Shown: positions 6,730 to 39,777 of the stretch, in pieces | How positions within the stretch are numbered: position 1 is the first letter of the stretch | How the letters are laid out: every line of letters starts with the position of its first letter | Assembly (NCBI GenBank): GCA_951406725.2 | Contig: OX597822.1 | Location: forward strand, 78,306,001-78,370,000 | DNA length: 64,000 nt | DNA from: Octopus vulgaris | Taxonomy: Eukaryota | Direction: 5' to 3' | Made by a program: the position numbers and the translations under genes | Notes under the pieces: model-generated | Told to the model about the DNA's origin: nothing | Seen by the model: the letters and a program-made list of their open reading frames with translations, nothing else | The model's database searches: none

Positions 6730-7119
6730 GGCGTGGCTGTGTGGTAAGAAGCTTGCTTCCCAACCACGTATCCACTGCGTGGCACCTTGGGCAAGTATCT
6801 TCTTCTATAGCCCCAGTCCAACCAAAGCCTAGTGAGTGAATTTGGTAGACGGAAACCGAAAGAAGCCCGTCGTATATATTTATGTGTGTGTATGTGTGCG
6901 CGCGTGTGCGTGTGTTTGTTCCCCCACCCCACCGCCATCGCTTGACAACTGATGCTGATGTGTTAATGTCCCCCACAACTTAGCGGTCCTGCAAAAAGAA
7001 CAATAGAATAAGTACTAGGCTTACAAAGAATAAGTCCTGGGGTCGATTTCTTCGACTAAAACCCTTTCAGGCGGTGCTCCAGCATGGCCGCTGTCAAATG
7101 GCTGAAACAAGTAAAGGAG
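6730..7119 (+). mobile_element. SINE family A
   Basis: gtggctgtgtggtaagaagcttgcttcccaacc head and gaaacaagtaaa tail. Confidence 0.85.
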
Positions 7120-7324
7120 TAGCAGAACACCGCCTGGAAAGAGGTATTTCTGCCAGTAGTACGTAAAAGTCTTTTCTACAAGATGTACAAGGGCTGAAAT
7201 TTTGAGTGAGAGAGAAGTCAATCACATTGACTCCTGTGTTCAACCTACGCTTGTTTTATCGATCCCCGAAAGGAGAAAAGGTAAAGCCAGTTCTGGAATT
7301 ATTTCTATACAAAACAAAAAGAAA

Positions 7325-7710
7325 TACACATTATTTACATTTGACAGATATTTGTCTTCATCATGTTTGTTGTTAACACAACGTTTCGGATGATATACCC
7401 TCCAGCCTTCTTCAGGTGTCTTGGAAAAATTTCGAACCTGGATTTTCATTCCTACGGTATTTTTTCGATGTTGTTGTTGTTGTTGTTGTTCTTGTTCTTG
7501 TTGTTCAGGTCACTGCTTGGAATCGAATTCGGAATCTTGGGGTTAGTAGCCCGCACTCTTAAACACTACGCCATATGCCCGTAGGAATGAGAATCCAGGT
7601 TCAAAATTTCCCCAAGACACGTGAAGAAGGCTGGAGAGTATATCAGCCGAAACGTTATGTTAACAACAAACAAGATGAGGACAAATATCCGTCGAATGTA
7701 AATAACGTAC
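7325..7710 (-). mobile_element. tRNA-headed element with inverted ~130-bp hammerhead-bearing arms (Penelope-like pLTR-type arrangement)
   Basis: Arms 7325-7457 and 7579-7710 are reverse complements. The centre (7505-7579) on the minus strand is tRNA-like (tggcgtagtg A box, ttcgattcc B box) and is followed by an (aac)n tract. Confidence 0.75.
7375..7420 (-). ncRNA. Minimal type I hammerhead ribozyme, intact core
   Basis: GACAC-CUGAAGA-A-GGCUG..CAUCC-GAAA-CG-UU^-GUGUU, with palindromic ACGU stem III. The + strand copy at 7616-7661 has C3->G. Confidence 0.7.
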
Positions 7711-7869
7711 AGAATTCTTCATCTCTTAAATATACAACTGTATTAAAAAGAAATACAGTTAATTACTTTTCTCAGCCATGCTAACGATCCCGCCAGCTCA
7801 CCACCTGAAAAAATACTAACAATTTTCATTGAGAACAGTCAAACAGATTATAACGAACTTAAAAAGTGA

Positions 7870-8074
7870 CAAGCAGAATTATAGGATTTCTCATTACTTA
7901 CAACACCGAATTCCCGAACATAGATGGTCCGGAGCCCGCCAAGCGGAATTCTAGGGTTTTTCATTACGGGTACAACACCGAATTCCTGAACATAGATGGC
8001 CCGGAATCTGTCAAGCAGAAATATAGGAATTTTCATTACGGGTACAACACCGAATTTCCGAACATAGATGGTCC
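7870..8074. repeat. 72-bp minisatellite, about 3 copies
   Basis: tacaacaccgaattc recurs at 7899, 7971 and 8043. Confidence 0.9.
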
Positions 8075-8542
8075 AATAACTCACTTAATAACTTAAGTAA
8101 ATTTAATACTTTAGTATACGTTAGCCAAGGTGACCACCCCTGGTTCAAAATTACCAGTAATTCGGAGAGGTTTGGGGAGCAAAGATTCCGGAAAATCAAT
8201 GTGGTATCTGTATTGTATAAAGTTTTGGATATAAAATATTAGATCTTGTTTTAGTATCTCCAAAATCTTTAGGAATACAAGAAATATCACAAACGGCCAT
8301 CATTTATTTTGTTGTTGTTTCGGTCGCTGGACAGCGGCCATGCTTGAGCACCACCTTGAAGGGCTTTAGTTGACCAAATCGACTCCAGTATCTATTTATT
8401 TCATAACTGTTCCTTCGGTCTTTACCACCTTTTAACATACATCTTCCACCTTCCACCTTTCACATCTACTTCCTCCTCACCTTTTCTTGTTTATTCCGTC
8501 ATTCTATAATCCTGTTTTTAGCTTGTTATGCCATGTGGGCAC

Positions 8543-9073: not shown

Positions 9074-9397
9074 GAGCACTCCGCCGGTTACGACGACGAG
9101 GGTCCAAGCTGATCCGATCAATGGAACAGCTTGCTCGTGAAATTAACGTGCAGGTGGCTGATCACTCCACAGACACGTGAACCCTTAATGTAGTTCTCAG
9201 GGAGATTCAGCGTGACACAGAGTGTGACAAGGCTGGTCCTTCGAAATACAGGTACTACTCATTTTTGCCAGCTGAGTGGACTGGAGCAACTTGAAATAAA
9301 GTGTCTTGCTCAAGGACACAACGCGTTGCTGGGAATTGAACTCACGACCTAACGATCGTGAGCCGAATGCCCTAACCACTAAACCATGCATCTTCAC
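9074..9397 (-). mobile_element. tRNA-derived SINE with a CORE-like body and family C tail
   Basis: Minus-strand tRNA-like head, gtgtccttgagcaagacactt...ctccagtccactcagctg body, and shared C tail. A similar copy lies at 15992-16304. Confidence 0.8.
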
Positions 9398-23316: not shown

Positions 23317-24607
23317 CGAGGGGCGTTCAATAAGTAATGCCTCTGACCCACTTGCAGTTGTTTGATCTAGCTGAAAATTTACATGTGCAATTATTTATAT
23401 CTCTATAGATTAAGTGGCAAATTACAGCTCTGAACTAATTGTGGTTTCTGATTTACAGGTGTTTGAACCGAGTCAAGTGTGAAATGGAGCCTGTTGAGTG
23501 TCGAGCAGTGATCTGGTTTTTGTATTTGAAAGGACGCACACCACGGGAGACTTTTGATGAAATGAAAGTAACTTATGGTGATGATGCCCCATCATATGAC
23601 CTTGTAAAACGCTGGCATCATGAATTCAAACATGGTTGGAACTCTGTGGAAACAGCTCCCAGATCTGGTCACCCCCCTTCTGCCATTGATGAGGCATCTG
23701 TCCGTCAAGTTGAGGCTGCCATTTTGGAAGATCGACGCATAACTATTCGCCAAATAGCCCATGAGGTCAAGTTTAGTACCGGGTCTGTGGAAACTATCAT
23801 TCATGACCATTTGCATATGCAAAAGGTGTCTGCCAGATGGATTCCCAGGTTGCTCACACCTTTCCAGAAGCAAGAACGCGTCGAGTGCTCGAGGATGAAT
23901 TTGGAGATGTGCCAAGAAGATGAGTCAAAATTTTTCAAAAGACTGATTACACAGGATGAAACCTGGGTCCATCACTATGATCCAGAGACCAAAGCCCAGT
24001 CAATGCAGTGGAAGCACCGTGACTCACCTCCTCCAAAGAAGGCAAGGGTGCAACCCTCCGCTGGCAAGGTCATGCTCACAGTCTTCTGGGACCAGACGGA
24101 GTAGTGATGACAGATTTCCTGGCAAAGGGTTCCACAATTACAGGAGCCTATTATGCTTCACTTTTGAGGAAATTAAGAGAAGCTATCAAAATCAAGAGGC
24201 GGGGCAAGATCAGCAAAGGCATCCTCCTCCTGCAGGACAACGCTTCGGTCTACAACTCGCGTGTCGCCAGATCAGAAGCACAGGCGTGCAGCTATTAACT
24301 CCTCCCCCATCCCCCTACTCTTCTGACCTTGCACCCTCTGATTTTCACCTCTTCCCAGCCATGAAGTTGTTTTTGAAAGGAAAGTGTTTACCAGATGATG
24401 CAGCCTTGATTTCTGAAGTCACGTCGTGGTTGGAGGACCAAGCTGGGGTCTTTTACAAAAACGGTCTCCAGAGTTGCATCAAACGATGGGAGAAATGTGT
24501 AACTCTGAGTGGTTCCTATGTAGAAAAAGACTAATAACTGTGCCAAGTTTCGTTGCTCTACTGCTATGGGAAGTGGGTCAGGGGCATTACTTATTGAACG
24601 CCCCTCG
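23317..24607 (+). mobile_element. Full-length mariner (D,D34D) element with TA TSD
   Basis: 37-bp TIRs cgaggggcgttcaataagtaatgcc.ctgacccactt (1 mismatch), flanked by TA within a TATG tract; length 1291 bp. Confidence 0.97.
23484..24534 (+). pseudogene. Mariner transposase pseudogene
   Basis: Motifs WIPRLL, TQDETW, LLQDNA and PYSSDLAPSDFHLF, split over three frames by frameshifts near 24095 and 24305 plus a premature TAA near 24296. Confidence 0.95.
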
Positions 24608-28106: not shown

Positions 28107-28410
28107 TGAAGGCGCGTGTCCTATGGGCAAAGGTAATTCACTCTCGATCTCGCGATCGCTGTTTCGATTCCCAGACCGGGCGGCACGTTGTGTTCTTGAT
28201 TAAAACACTTCATTTTACGTTGATCCAGTTCATTCAGCTTTAAATGAATAAACCCACGGTGGACTGCCATTCTGTTCAGGAGGAATGTTTGTCTGCCCGC
28301 CTAGCGACCAGGGATGGCATCATTCGAAAGCTACGACGATGCGAGGAAGCGCATTGTGACGAGCAGTGTATAACCACATCCGCTAATCTGGCCGATACAG
28401 TGATACAATG
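28107..28410 (+). mobile_element. tRNA/CORE-like SINE with a third tail type (tail also at 63103-63185, minus)
   Basis: gtttcgattcccagaccggg B box; tail gcgcattgtgac.agc..tgt...acatc shared with 63103-63185. Confidence 0.7.
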
Positions 28411-34841: not shown

Positions 34842-35936
34842 TTAATGAATTAATGAATTTAGCTACGTTATTTTTTCATACTAAACATAAAGAAGTGACA
34901 AAGAAATATGAAAAACCCTTAATAAGGAAGATAACAGGGTTTTTAATGTAATAAATTTGAAAAAAATATAGCTGTTTCTTATGGTATGTGAGAATGCAGG
35001 TATGCACGGAGTGTAGTAACTGATTTTAATAAGAAAAAAATAAACGAGTATATTTCAAAAGTTGTTTTAAAAGGCAGCAAGTCTAGTCTTAAAAGGGCGA
35101 CAACCCCGGCTTTACAGAGGTAGAAAGACCTAACAAAACTATAGTACATCAATATAAGGTTTGGGCTCTCATGCAATGCAAGAATTTCATGTAAAGAGCA
35201 GCAATTAAATCAATGTTAAGTAGTCTAATGAGATACATGTAATCTTGCACGAGATGTATTTGTGTTCCATGTACACACATTTCAATGGATCATCAGGTGT
35301 CAAGTGCCAACACTGAATAAAACTGTATTCGCATAATTCTTTGCACCCTTGCGATTATTACGAGACGGCAATGCTGAGCTTAGAAGAGCGTAAATCAAGC
35401 CTTTGATCTCTTGGAGGCTGTGTCAACACCCAACTGGCTGAAAATTACTTCAACGTACATTTTTCAACATAAACACGTATTTATATTATCATCTTCAGCA
35501 TCGTATCCGGCTTACTGGAACTGCAGTTGTCCGCTTACAACAAGGAAGACCTCGTGCCACCCAGATCGAGTAAGGCCATCATATTGTGAGGCGACATATG
35601 CAAGAGACGTTACTGACAGCTATGAAAACAGATCAACAGCTGTCTGGATGATGCCAACGACGTATTGGCGACGATCTCTACGAACGACAGTCTTAAGAGA
35701 GCAACATCAGCATGCTAGACTACAGAGAACATAAAATAAACAGAAATGGACAGCAGTTGGGATTATGTTTTACATATTAGTACAAAAATCTTTAAAGGAT
35801 CAAAAGAACTGTGTAACCTAAATTATGCTCTTTTTTTCTTTCCAGTAAATTTCAATCTAAGGACAAGAATGCGACGTCACAATTGTAAACAAGAGTGTAG
35901 AGACCCACGGTTTTTACTTATTGTATTTGATCACCG

Positions 35937-37500: not shown

Positions 37501-39777
37501 TGTATGTATAAAAGAGAGATTCTACCCGTTTGTATGTTTGTTTGTCCCATAAAACGAAACTAATCGGTTCAAAGGAAGCAACACTAATTGTGCTTCAATA
37601 AAGTCTTCTGTATTATGGTATCATGTGAAAACACTTCTACTTTCGACAAATATAAGATCGAAGCTTTCAAGAGATCAACCAGCTGAACTATTTACAGAGC
37701 AGCTTCTGAAACTCCGTGAAGAGAGAGTTCCAATTGATGAAGAACAGTTTCTAACACTCAATCGAAAATGTAATTTAACTGATTCCGTCGATGATTTGAT
37801 GGATGTAATATTTCCCAATCTTCTTCATAATTACAACAATGCTGATTAGATCTGTGTGCGAGCTATACTGACTCCAAAAAATGTTGCTGTACATAGCATT
37901 AATAATATGCTATTGAATAAAACTTCTGGGAGAAATATTCACTTATAACTCAAATGACAGGGTTGTTGATAATCAGGATATTGTTAACTACCCCATCAAA
38001 TTTTTGAACTCACTACAACCACCAGGTACGATTCCTCATCATCTTCAGCTGAAAAGAATGGACTCATATTATGCTGTTGCGTAATTTGTCTCAGCCAAAA
38101 TCATGCAAAGGTACAAGATTAACTTATGACAAACTGCATTGAGGCAAATATTATCACTGGCTGTGCTAAAGGTGAGACCATCTTCATTTCTCACATACCA
38201 GTTATACTATCTAATATCTCATTCCAATTTAAGCGGTTACAATTTCCTATGCGAGTTTTTTTTTTTTTTTTGCCATGAGCATTAATAAAATTCAGGGCCA
38301 AACACTAAAAGTTATTTGAACAACCATGCTTCTCACATGGCCAACTTTATGTAGGAGCATCACATGTGGGAACAAAAGCAAATCGTTTTGCTTATGCACC
38401 CCGAAATAATTTTTTAAAAACCATTGTTTATAAAGAAATATTCGGTCTAATGCAACATGAATACTTCAATAACTTAATTTATCATTACTATTGTTATATT
38501 CAAGATTGAGTAAATTACATATTTAAATGAACTGTATTATATAATTGCCATTACTGTATGGATAAATACAATAAAACATACAACTCACTTATTATTATAT
38601 AATAAACAAACAGAAGTTTATATATGAAACTGATTTTTTTTTTTCTACTGCAATTATTTTGTGAGATGGAGGCTTTCAAGAGACCAATCAGCTGAGCTAT
38701 TTGCAGAGCAGCTTCTGAAGCGTGGTGAAGGATGAGTTCCAATTGATAAAGAACAGGTTCTTACACTCAATCCAATATGTAATTTAACTGATTCCGTCGA
38801 TGATTCGGTGGATGAAATTTTTCCTAATCTTTTTCATAATTACAACAATACAGATTTGATCTGTGAACGAGCTATGTTACTGAACATAGTATTAATAATA
38901 TGCTATTGAATAAACATCCAAGAGAAATATTCACTTATAACTCAACTGATAGGGTTGTTGATGATCAGGATAAGTTTTGAACTCACTACAACCATCAAAT
39001 ACAGTCCTCATGGTCTTCAGCTGATAAAATGGACTCCTATTATACTATTAAATAATTTGCCTCCACCAAAATTATGCAATGGTACAAGATCAATTGTGCA
39101 CAAACTCATGAGGAACTGCATTGAGCAAATATTCTCACAGGCTGTGGTAAATGTAAGACGGTCATCATTTCTCAAATACCAGTTATACCATCTAATGTCC
39201 CATTCCAATTTAAGTGGTTACAGTTTCCTATCCCACTTTCTTTTGCCATGAGCATTAATAAAAATCAGGACCAAACACTAAAAGTTGCTGGATTGCAACT
39301 TGAACAACCATGCTTCTCACATGGCCAACTTTATGTACGAGCATCATGTGTGGGAGCAAAAGTAAATCTTTCTGCTTATCCCCACCCCCTCGAAATAAAA
39401 CAAAATCATTGTTTATAAAGAAATATTCACTCTTAATGCAACATGAATACTTCAGTAACTGAATTTGCCATTACTATCATTGCTTTCAAGATTGAGTAAA
39501 TTAACTATTCGAATGAAGTGTATTATATAATTGCCATTACTGTATTGATAAATAAAATAACACATACAACTCAATTATTATTATTATCATATAATAAACA
39601 AACAGAAGTTCATGTATGAAATTAATCTTTCTTTCTACTCCAGTTATTACATATGTTTTTTCTTATAAAGATACAAACATACAGGAGGAGTAAATTATAT
39701 ATATAATAATACTTTGAATGTGGCTCCCGAGAAACAGTAAAAGTAATTACCCGATCATCGACGGGTATTACTGCTAG
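37501..39777 (+). mobile_element. Decayed Helitron with a duplicated PIF1-helicase C-terminal segment
   Basis: Motifs [48 protein letters not shown] and CFSHGQLYV, present in two blocks (about 37620-38450 and 38670-39435). 3' hairpin tacccg..cgggta then CTAG(39774-39777)+T. 5' end approximate. Confidence 0.9.

Follow-up and report, generated by a model that had tools for sequence, protein, structure and literature searches.

An insertion at 7329-7744 of a 64-kb window of octopus DNA (the window being the whole stretch that was analysed, 64,000 nt) represents a high-copy, non-coding retroposon, which quite probably combines a tRNA-derived head with the 3' end of an EN+ Penelope-like element (PLE) and would then be a SINE with a PLE, not a LINE, as its partner. 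Mobilisation by Penelope-type machinery, already claimed in the initial annotation of this DNA, is supported by the layout of the sequence, in which a target-site duplication encloses the whole unit, an inverted, 5'-truncated partner adjoins it and a 36-nt tail is present on one side. It is also supported by analogy with elements encoding RT and GIY-YIG domains, which the unit resembles in hammerhead layout and end distances. The PLE-partner reading would change the classification of a sizeable repeat family, and the insertion scars suggest a use for the hammerhead.

Structure of the insertion

We treat 7329-7744 as one insertion because 13-nt direct repeats flank the unit as a whole. The two copies of the repeat, at 7316-7328 and 7745-7757 (plus strand), are the longest exact repeat between the two flank zones; the last base of the left copy is common to the adjoining arm, and the right copy begins 88 nt past the predicted hammerhead cut. 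An anchored 13-mer was present in 30 of 8597 control site pairs. By eye, no duplication was seen around the head alone. Within these limits, a complete unit reads along the minus strand from the tRNA-like head (from 7582 or 7580 to 7505), through a linker at 7504-7458 that comprises the (AAC)n tract reported to follow the head and a 12-nt spacer, to the 3' arm (7457-7328), which stops at a "short" 3' end 51-52 nt past the predicted cut. This unit is met head to head by an inverted, 5'-truncated second copy consisting of the arm only (7579-7708, plus strand). The inverted arms of about 130 bp are real, being identical at 117 of 130 nt (E 3e-49), and the 64-kb window holds no further arm copy beyond these two. 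The inverted arm does adjoin the 5' side of the head as had been claimed, but the junction is an overlap of 4 nt between the 5' end of the head and the start of the inverted arm (7579-7582), not an exact abutment. The right arm continues to 7744, i.e. 36 nt past the end of the left arm, through an optional tail found at one end only (7709-7744, plus strand). Thus the extent first given, 7325 to 7710, took in the arms but set the right limit too early. Both 3' ends of the insertion face outward, and the duplication encloses the complete minus-strand unit together with the truncated copy and its extra tail.

Compared with the features that define EN+ PLE insertions, the unit has a hammerhead near its 3' end, with the cut 51 and 88 nt from the two ends, an inverted 5'-truncated copy adjoining its 5' end, and a one-end tail of the 30-40-nt class combined with a short target-site duplication of 13 nt. 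At about 290 nt with the tail, it is also short (<700 bp) and non-autonomous, as SINEBase asks of a SINE. The two arms share two letters that are in the minority in the family, at 7594 (12%) and 7625 (about 23%), which fits what would be expected if both were copied from one source. A shared G at 7581 and 7455 was dropped as a sign of a common template, as it may derive from the 5' end of the head. A reading frame of 54 codons is open through both arms, at 7581-7742 (plus) and 7455-7330 (minus), despite their 10% divergence; it has no Pfam match and no longer homologue (the homologue search being a weak test), and we rejected it as an ORF remnant on these grounds.

The tRNA-like head

The head occupies 7505-7582 on the minus strand, with an A box at 7573-7563, an anticodon-type loop at 7549-7543 and a B box at 7529-7519. 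Read from 7580, it carries at tRNA spacing 19 of the 21 tRNA positions that are invariant or semi-invariant, with U8 at 7573; shuffled 64-kb windows (30 shuffles) gave 0.33 such sites each, allowing up to 2 mismatches. It is on these 19 positions that we count the head as tRNA-derived in the sense of SINEBase (tRNA, 7SL or 5S), the covariance models being negative: at gathering and E-value thresholds, Rfam gave neither a tRNA nor a hammerhead match. ARAGORN called no tRNA at the head down to 80% stringency, and at 70% it made one unrelated plus-strand call among 159 background calls. Since neither Rfam nor ARAGORN gives a call, the cloverleaf of the head is degenerate. The head of the initial annotation is confirmed as tRNA-like. 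Of the two promoter boxes ascribed to it, the A box has 1 mismatch in the window copy and the B box lacks G53, and among the family rows listed there was no majority change restoring G53. A second B-box-like motif with 1 mismatch is present in the 5' part of each arm, at 7437-7429 (minus) and 7599-7607 (plus), and might stand in for the defective B box of the head. A comparison of the head with phage records returned only two chance matches of 23 nt.

The hammerhead motifs

The left arm contains a minimal type I hammerhead at 7375-7420 (minus strand), with stem I formed by 7420-7416 and 7379-7375, the core running from 7415 and the predicted cut at 7380/7379. The core is intact, all five pairs of stem I and four of the five of stem II can form (the exception being a C.U mismatch at 7390), and stem II is preceded by a bulged A and the UH by a palindromic CG. 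The minimal PLE hammerhead has been described by this core, a stem I of 4-5 bp, a bulged nucleotide before stem II and palindromic positions 15.2-16.2 (Cervera and de la Pena 2014, PMC4209133). Both the left arm and the family majority letters agree with the minimal type I hammerhead. The right arm does not: its motif, at 7616-7661 (plus strand, predicted cut at 7656/7657), is broken by a C3 to G change at 7621 and by the loss of the inner stem I pair at 7657. Thus, of the two arms that had been annotated as hammerhead-bearing, one has an intact motif, and the copy at 7329-7744 is decayed, with one hammerhead dead. The family majority mends every hammerhead lesion of the window copy, with C at 7621 in 95%, the pairing letter at 7390 in 94% and G at 7657 in 94% (X1). 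CpG decay aside, N7 was the only core position with three alleles among the family rows listed.

Applied to 20000 random arms, the descriptor that we used gave 2 matches; elsewhere in the window it had one, a weak match at 35498 (minus), where stem II is long and AT-rich. When folded to minimum energy, the head and arms did no better than shuffled sequences, except for the right hammerhead (z -1.9), and when two copies were cofolded the dimeric hammerhead fold was not the minimum-energy state.

The family in sequencing contigs

To view the family we compared contigs from four runs (three of them DNA and the fourth, X15, perhaps RNA) with 7111-7860 at 80% likeness, skipping 7458-7512. The four runs gave 29287, 28315, 23916 and 4000 matching contigs, and the depth over the head was 2.6-3.2 million in the three DNA runs as against about 50-60 for single-copy contigs. 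This corresponds to roughly 4-6 x 10^4 copies, with depth taken as an indication and not as a strict copy number. Linker followed by arm is the normal order, since an (AAT/AAC)n linker can be recognised in the loose ends before the start of the arm in 224, 226, 211 and 47 contigs. Linkage of head, linker and arm across the family is indicated by one listed contig that bridges all three (X10 record 10, with 14 differences and 6 gaps) and by indirect signs. On whether head and arm co-occur, which the initial annotation had proposed to check, the evidence is divided: the linker-arm join recurs, but depth in X1 is higher over the arm (up to 8.6 million) than over the head (3.2 million), and arms without a head are therefore common. 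Such an excess is what 5' truncation and inverted partners would give; it is also compatible with a separate family of headless arms. Arm depth peaks just past the cut, at 8.6, 4.0 and 7.7 million over 7661-7685.

The outer ends of the family pile up at 7328 (where 166, 116, 106 and 12 contigs have loose ends), 7705 and 7709, and listed pieces run to 7732-7746, with a depth of 1.25 million at 7711-7735 in the tail. A 9-nt unit at the short 3' end (7700-7708) varies in copy number across the family, as seen from a joint of 7328 to 7700 and from loose ends. At the other side, the inverted junction of the window copy makes up 0.05-1.9% of the local depth. As this is below 2%, the inverted arm must be made anew at each insertion and is no fixed terminus. 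The initial annotation was thus correct in seeing an inverted copy, but not in taking it as a fixed part of the element.

The same hammerhead layout in other animals

The exact pattern of the arm had no match in metagenome, viral and genome collections, and the pattern of the hammerhead layout had none in viral contigs. The layout was found, however, in at least 119 metagenome loci (at least 125 matches). Stem I pairs in 104 of the 125 listed matches and in 18 of the 36 distinct types among them, compared with a mean of 3.4 and a maximum of 10 after shuffling. Of the 77 long ORFs at the listed loci, 29 were scanned, giving seven RVT_1 and two GIY-YIG matches. The hammerhead lies 83 nt behind an ORF with RT and GIY-YIG domains at one locus (L026), 82 nt behind a GIY-YIG ORF at another (L054), and, at two more (L073 and L081), 267 nt behind RT ORFs of 835 aa that are arranged in tandem and contain a Zn linker and a GIY-YIG motif. 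The last two loci (L073:68-7964 and L081) consist of tandem PLE units of 3933 nt, each bounded by the hammerhead layout and each with an upstream open frame of 373 aa that belongs to no Pfam family.

Six loci were picked for clear flank repeats of 8-16 nt. In four of them (L001, L032, L091 and L099) the short end lies at +44 to +58 from the cut and the duplication starts at +81 to +89, to be compared with +51 and +88 in the window; the other two differ (+79/+108 and +90/+86). The tRNA head seems to be special to the octopus family, as a pair of A and B boxes within 300 nt upstream was found for 1 of the 125 listed layout matches, with 2 mismatches. ARAGORN, run on 40 of the at least 119 loci, found one tRNA, unrelated to a hammerhead. 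The best matches of the arm among these loci span only the hammerhead itself (35-43 nt). Four strings of head and arm motifs were absent from the O. vulgaris supplement, and five arm strings were absent from the supplement of Craig et al., whose one octopus PLE hammerhead differs. In these loci and supplements no autonomous partner of the family came to light.

A possible mechanism of insertion

At the 5' end of PLE insertions there is an inverted 5'-truncated copy, and a tail of 30-40 bp is often found at one end (Craig et al., PMC8557442). Arkhipova et al. (PMC3846280) reported duplications of 9-10 bp, a tail of 31 bp, palindromes where inverted copies join, and trans mobilisation by pLTRs alone. 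The PLE protein PAc cleaves and extends both strands and prefers AT-rich DNA; it is predicted to be a dimer, two internal start sites define the tail, and mainly uncut RNA is used (Frangieh et al., PMC11167929). On this basis, a pathway for the octopus family can be envisioned. Judging from the boxes of the head, Pol III would most likely make an RNA of about 290 nt that contains head, linker, arm and tail. An RT/GIY-YIG protein supplied by a PLE elsewhere would then bind its 3' part and nick the two strands of an AT-rich target 12-13 nt apart, leaving the duplication that is observed. By analogy with the biochemistry of PAc, both 3'-OH ends could prime reverse transcription, one from the short start (about +51) and the other from the long start (+88), and the two starts would give the one-sided tail, the ends themselves being observed. 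The two cDNAs would finally meet head to head and be joined through an overlap of a few nucleotides, such as the 4 nt at 7579-7582. In this pathway the complete copy would have to stem from uncut RNA. The description of the unit as ribozyme-processed is consequently inapplicable to head-bearing copies, because reverse transcription starts at the 3' end, from which the cut would separate the head; at most, cleavage supplies the template of the second, inverted piece.

It is here that the positions of the joints are informative. From 293 joints we took the best 15, chosen for support, which consist of 10 joints of antisense to sense arm, 4 opposite-strand joints, which we interpret as short indels or duplications inside a single arm, and 1 internal deletion; there was no empty-site joint among them. 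In these 15, the 10 inverted joints start at 7658, 7654, 7633, 7665, 7653, 7657, 7658, 7706, 7638 and 7658. Six of these 10 are within 4 nt of the predicted hammerhead cut, and four fall on 7657-7658, the first two nucleotides past it. The best 12 of a further 209 rows gave five more inverted joints, starting at 7658, 7659, 7582, 7708 and 7627, and one head-to-tail joint. A binomial p of 5.6e-6 for the clustering overstates the case, as the rows were selected for support and any hot spot would meet the 7-nt window with a chance of about 6%. What can fairly be said is that there is a hot spot and that it coincides with the cut, as would happen by chance in about 6% of cases. Two of the 15 listed joints are losses of 3 nt at the predicted cut within one arm (7653-7659 / 7381-7383), for which slippage or cutting and rejoining are possible, and in two runs 25 nt are duplicated over the GAAA half (7366 to 7646).

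From these few rows, it can be proposed that synthesis of the second cDNA frequently ends at the hammerhead cut, with the 3' cleavage product as its template, a step to which we would give an even chance. The competing explanation, which concerns this step alone and is otherwise compatible with the pathway above, is that no hammerhead cut takes place in vivo and that the pile-up at 7653-7658 marks an RT pause or fold-back at structured or palindromic RNA. We regard it as a serious contender, if not quite an even one. The four listed joints on the first two nucleotides past the cut argue against a pause, as does the catalytic core being kept in the family majority while N7 varies, but a competing hairpin begins at about 7654, and the A at 7657 that is private to the window copy can shift the reported joints by a few nucleotides. 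In vitro, hammerhead mutants of PAc RNA were fully active, cleavage being dispensable, and no RNA reads ended at the cut (Frangieh et al., PMC11167929). The other animals can be read in both ways. An inverted upstream partner accompanies 20 of 103 motifs among the matches listed (19 of them independent), with starts at -143, -104, -98, -49, -32, -18, -17, -12, -11, -5, -4, -2, +1, +2, +15, +25, +35, +44 and +58 from the cut. Five of the 19 lie within 5 nt of the cut, which is weak support for its use, and the four starts that lie inside stem II (-11, -12, -17 and -18) also speak for a pause.

The function of the hammerhead in EN+ PLEs has been called unclear (PMC8557442). We tentatively suggest, as a possibility that falls short of being probable, that in this family, taken as a Pol III SINE with tens of thousands of PLE-mobilised copies, the hammerhead acts at integration: two RNAs would pair through the palindromic stem III, one of them would be cut, and a PLE dimer would use the uncut RNA as template at one nick and the 3' cleavage product at the second. 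If true, this would explain the head-to-head insertions of PLEs and give their EN+ hammerhead a function that can be read from genomic junctions. With about 4-6 x 10^4 copies there should be thousands of natural junctions, and whether the second cDNA ends at the cut can be decided by counting them in one assembly.

Other origins of the head and the inverted arm

A different view of the head is that it is a passenger and not the promoter, i.e. that a dead tRNA or a piece of a SINE was captured by a non-autonomous PLE or retrozyme-like unit. Mobilisation would still be by a PLE, and transcription of the unit would depend on read-through by Pol II or on a tandem copy lying upstream. Such capture of unrelated DNA between pLTRs is on record (PMC3846280), and the B box lacks G53. 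Also in its favour are one tandem joint, in which the arm end is followed by the head (7582 to 7328, X4), and the heads that often carry 2 extra nucleotides and then a short inverted copy of their own first bases (7575-7582, with loose ends behind 7582 in 122, 93, 94 and 10 contigs); similar palindromic junctions have been ascribed to self-priming (PMC3846280). We nevertheless consider capture improbable. The 5' end of the family is the 5' end of the tRNA, where depth falls about 100-fold (in X1, from about 1.2-1.3 million on either side to 13171 at 7581 and 5932 at 7583), and the majority letter at 7563, carried by 97% of the depth, makes the A box complete. Furthermore, the right arm and tail lack a run of T4, and the T5 run of the left arm is built by two letters that are in the minority in the family.

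An ordinary SINE mobilised by a LINE, with a motif that merely looks like a hammerhead and an inverted arm produced by L1-type twin priming, is very unlikely. It would account for a tRNA head accompanied by a simple-repeat tract, and octopus genomes are described as having abundant LINEs (PMC13282606). Here, however, the simple repeat lies inside the unit and not at the 3' end. Twin priming gives non-overlapping pieces, while the two pieces of this insertion overlap over 130 nt. The hammerhead layout also agrees with PLEs, as do the two possible 3' ends, which lie 36 nt from each other.

The least likely of all is the case against which the initial annotation had set its claim, an independent SINE lying inside a foldback element or MITE, or else a one-off chimera of SINE and PLE at this locus, for although the exact junction of the window copy is rare (<2% of depth), the linker-arm join recurs in hundreds of contigs from all four runs, inverted arm pieces that start at many different positions of the arm are joined to head 5' ends, the arms are unequal by the 36-nt tail, and a single duplication encloses everything, with none seen by eye round the head.

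Relation to known elements

In the way it works, the element resembles a non-autonomous PLE that has acquired the head of a SINE-like unit, and it is neither a SINE in the strict sense nor a retrozyme. With the EN+ PLEs (Penelope/Poseidon, Neptune and Hydra; PMC8557442, PMC3846280, PMC11167929) it has in common the hammerhead near the 3' end, the inverted 5'-truncated copy, the 30-40-nt tail at one end, the short duplication, the AT-rich target and the palindromic junctions. Unlike them, it has no ORF and consists in its 5' part of a tRNA-like head that contains A and B boxes. MRC1 of Chlamydomonas, a non-autonomous PLE whose 3' end is shared with autonomous PLEs, likewise makes PLE-type insertions, and its description mentions neither a tRNA head nor a canonical hammerhead (PMC8557442).

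The SMalpha and Sjalpha repeats of schistosomes (PMC6765202, PMC8490949) are short and non-coding and also have a Pol III-type promoter followed by a type I hammerhead. Their units are arranged in tandem and freed by cleavage, so that the promoter ends up at the 3' end of the cut unit; in the octopus family, by contrast, the units are dispersed, the head stays at the 5' end, the hammerhead is of the minimal PLE type and the insertions carry PLE scars. No PLE partner is named for SMalpha in its descriptions (PMC6765202, PMC8490949). Animal non-LTR retrozymes (PMC7229834; bioRxiv 10.64898/2026.07.22.740005) are again non-coding, have a type I hammerhead and have been proposed to use PLE enzymes, but they form tandem arrays with a hammerhead in each unit and give circular RNAs, and their descriptions contain no tRNA head. 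The window element is a single unit with an inverted partner, and with one head-to-tail joint among the best 12 of 209 rows in place of tandem units, we did not assign it to the non-LTR retrozymes.

Like tRNA-derived SINEs (SINEBase, PMC3531059), the family is short and non-autonomous and has a tRNA-like head with internal promoter boxes. It differs from them in that its apparent partner is a PLE and not a LINE or LTR element, in its internal simple repeat and in having two alternative 3' start sites. SINEs are defined in SINEBase as dependent on LINEs (PMC3531059), and a strict SINE was rejected, as the PLE-type 3' end and scars and the internal (AAC)n take the place of a LINE partner and a 3' simple-repeat tail. 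A MITE or foldback DNA element was rejected as well: instead of fixed and equal terminal inverted repeats, there is a 36-nt tail at one end and an inner junction that varies between copies. An analogue with an LTR partner is provided by Helenus and Ajax, Pol III passengers of LTR elements that were described in 2024 (PMC10886601). Each half of the octopus element thus has a precedent, in schistosome SMalpha on the one hand and in non-autonomous PLEs on the other. Our search of the literature, as distinct from Repbase and Dfam, where the family may already be named, found no tRNA-headed element with PLE ends and no SINE with a PLE partner. Papers on cephalopod repeats give classes only, with many unclassified SINEs (PMC13282606, PMC8967140, PMC6962438, PMC4758252).

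Other features of the window

The DNA of the window is of animal type and contains many microsatellites and SINE-like repeats; its repeats look like those of Octopus. Six other tRNA-like heads with 0-2 mismatches are present, at 9386, 16294, 23148 and 31783 on the minus strand and at 28117 and 35947 on the plus strand, and by eye they apparently come from further SINE families. Close to the insertion, at 7885-8075, about four degenerate copies of a 55-60-nt unit can be made out by eye. Further downstream are a frameshifted mariner-type transposase (23439-24534, plus strand) and a fragment of a Pif1 helicase (38910-39251, plus strand).
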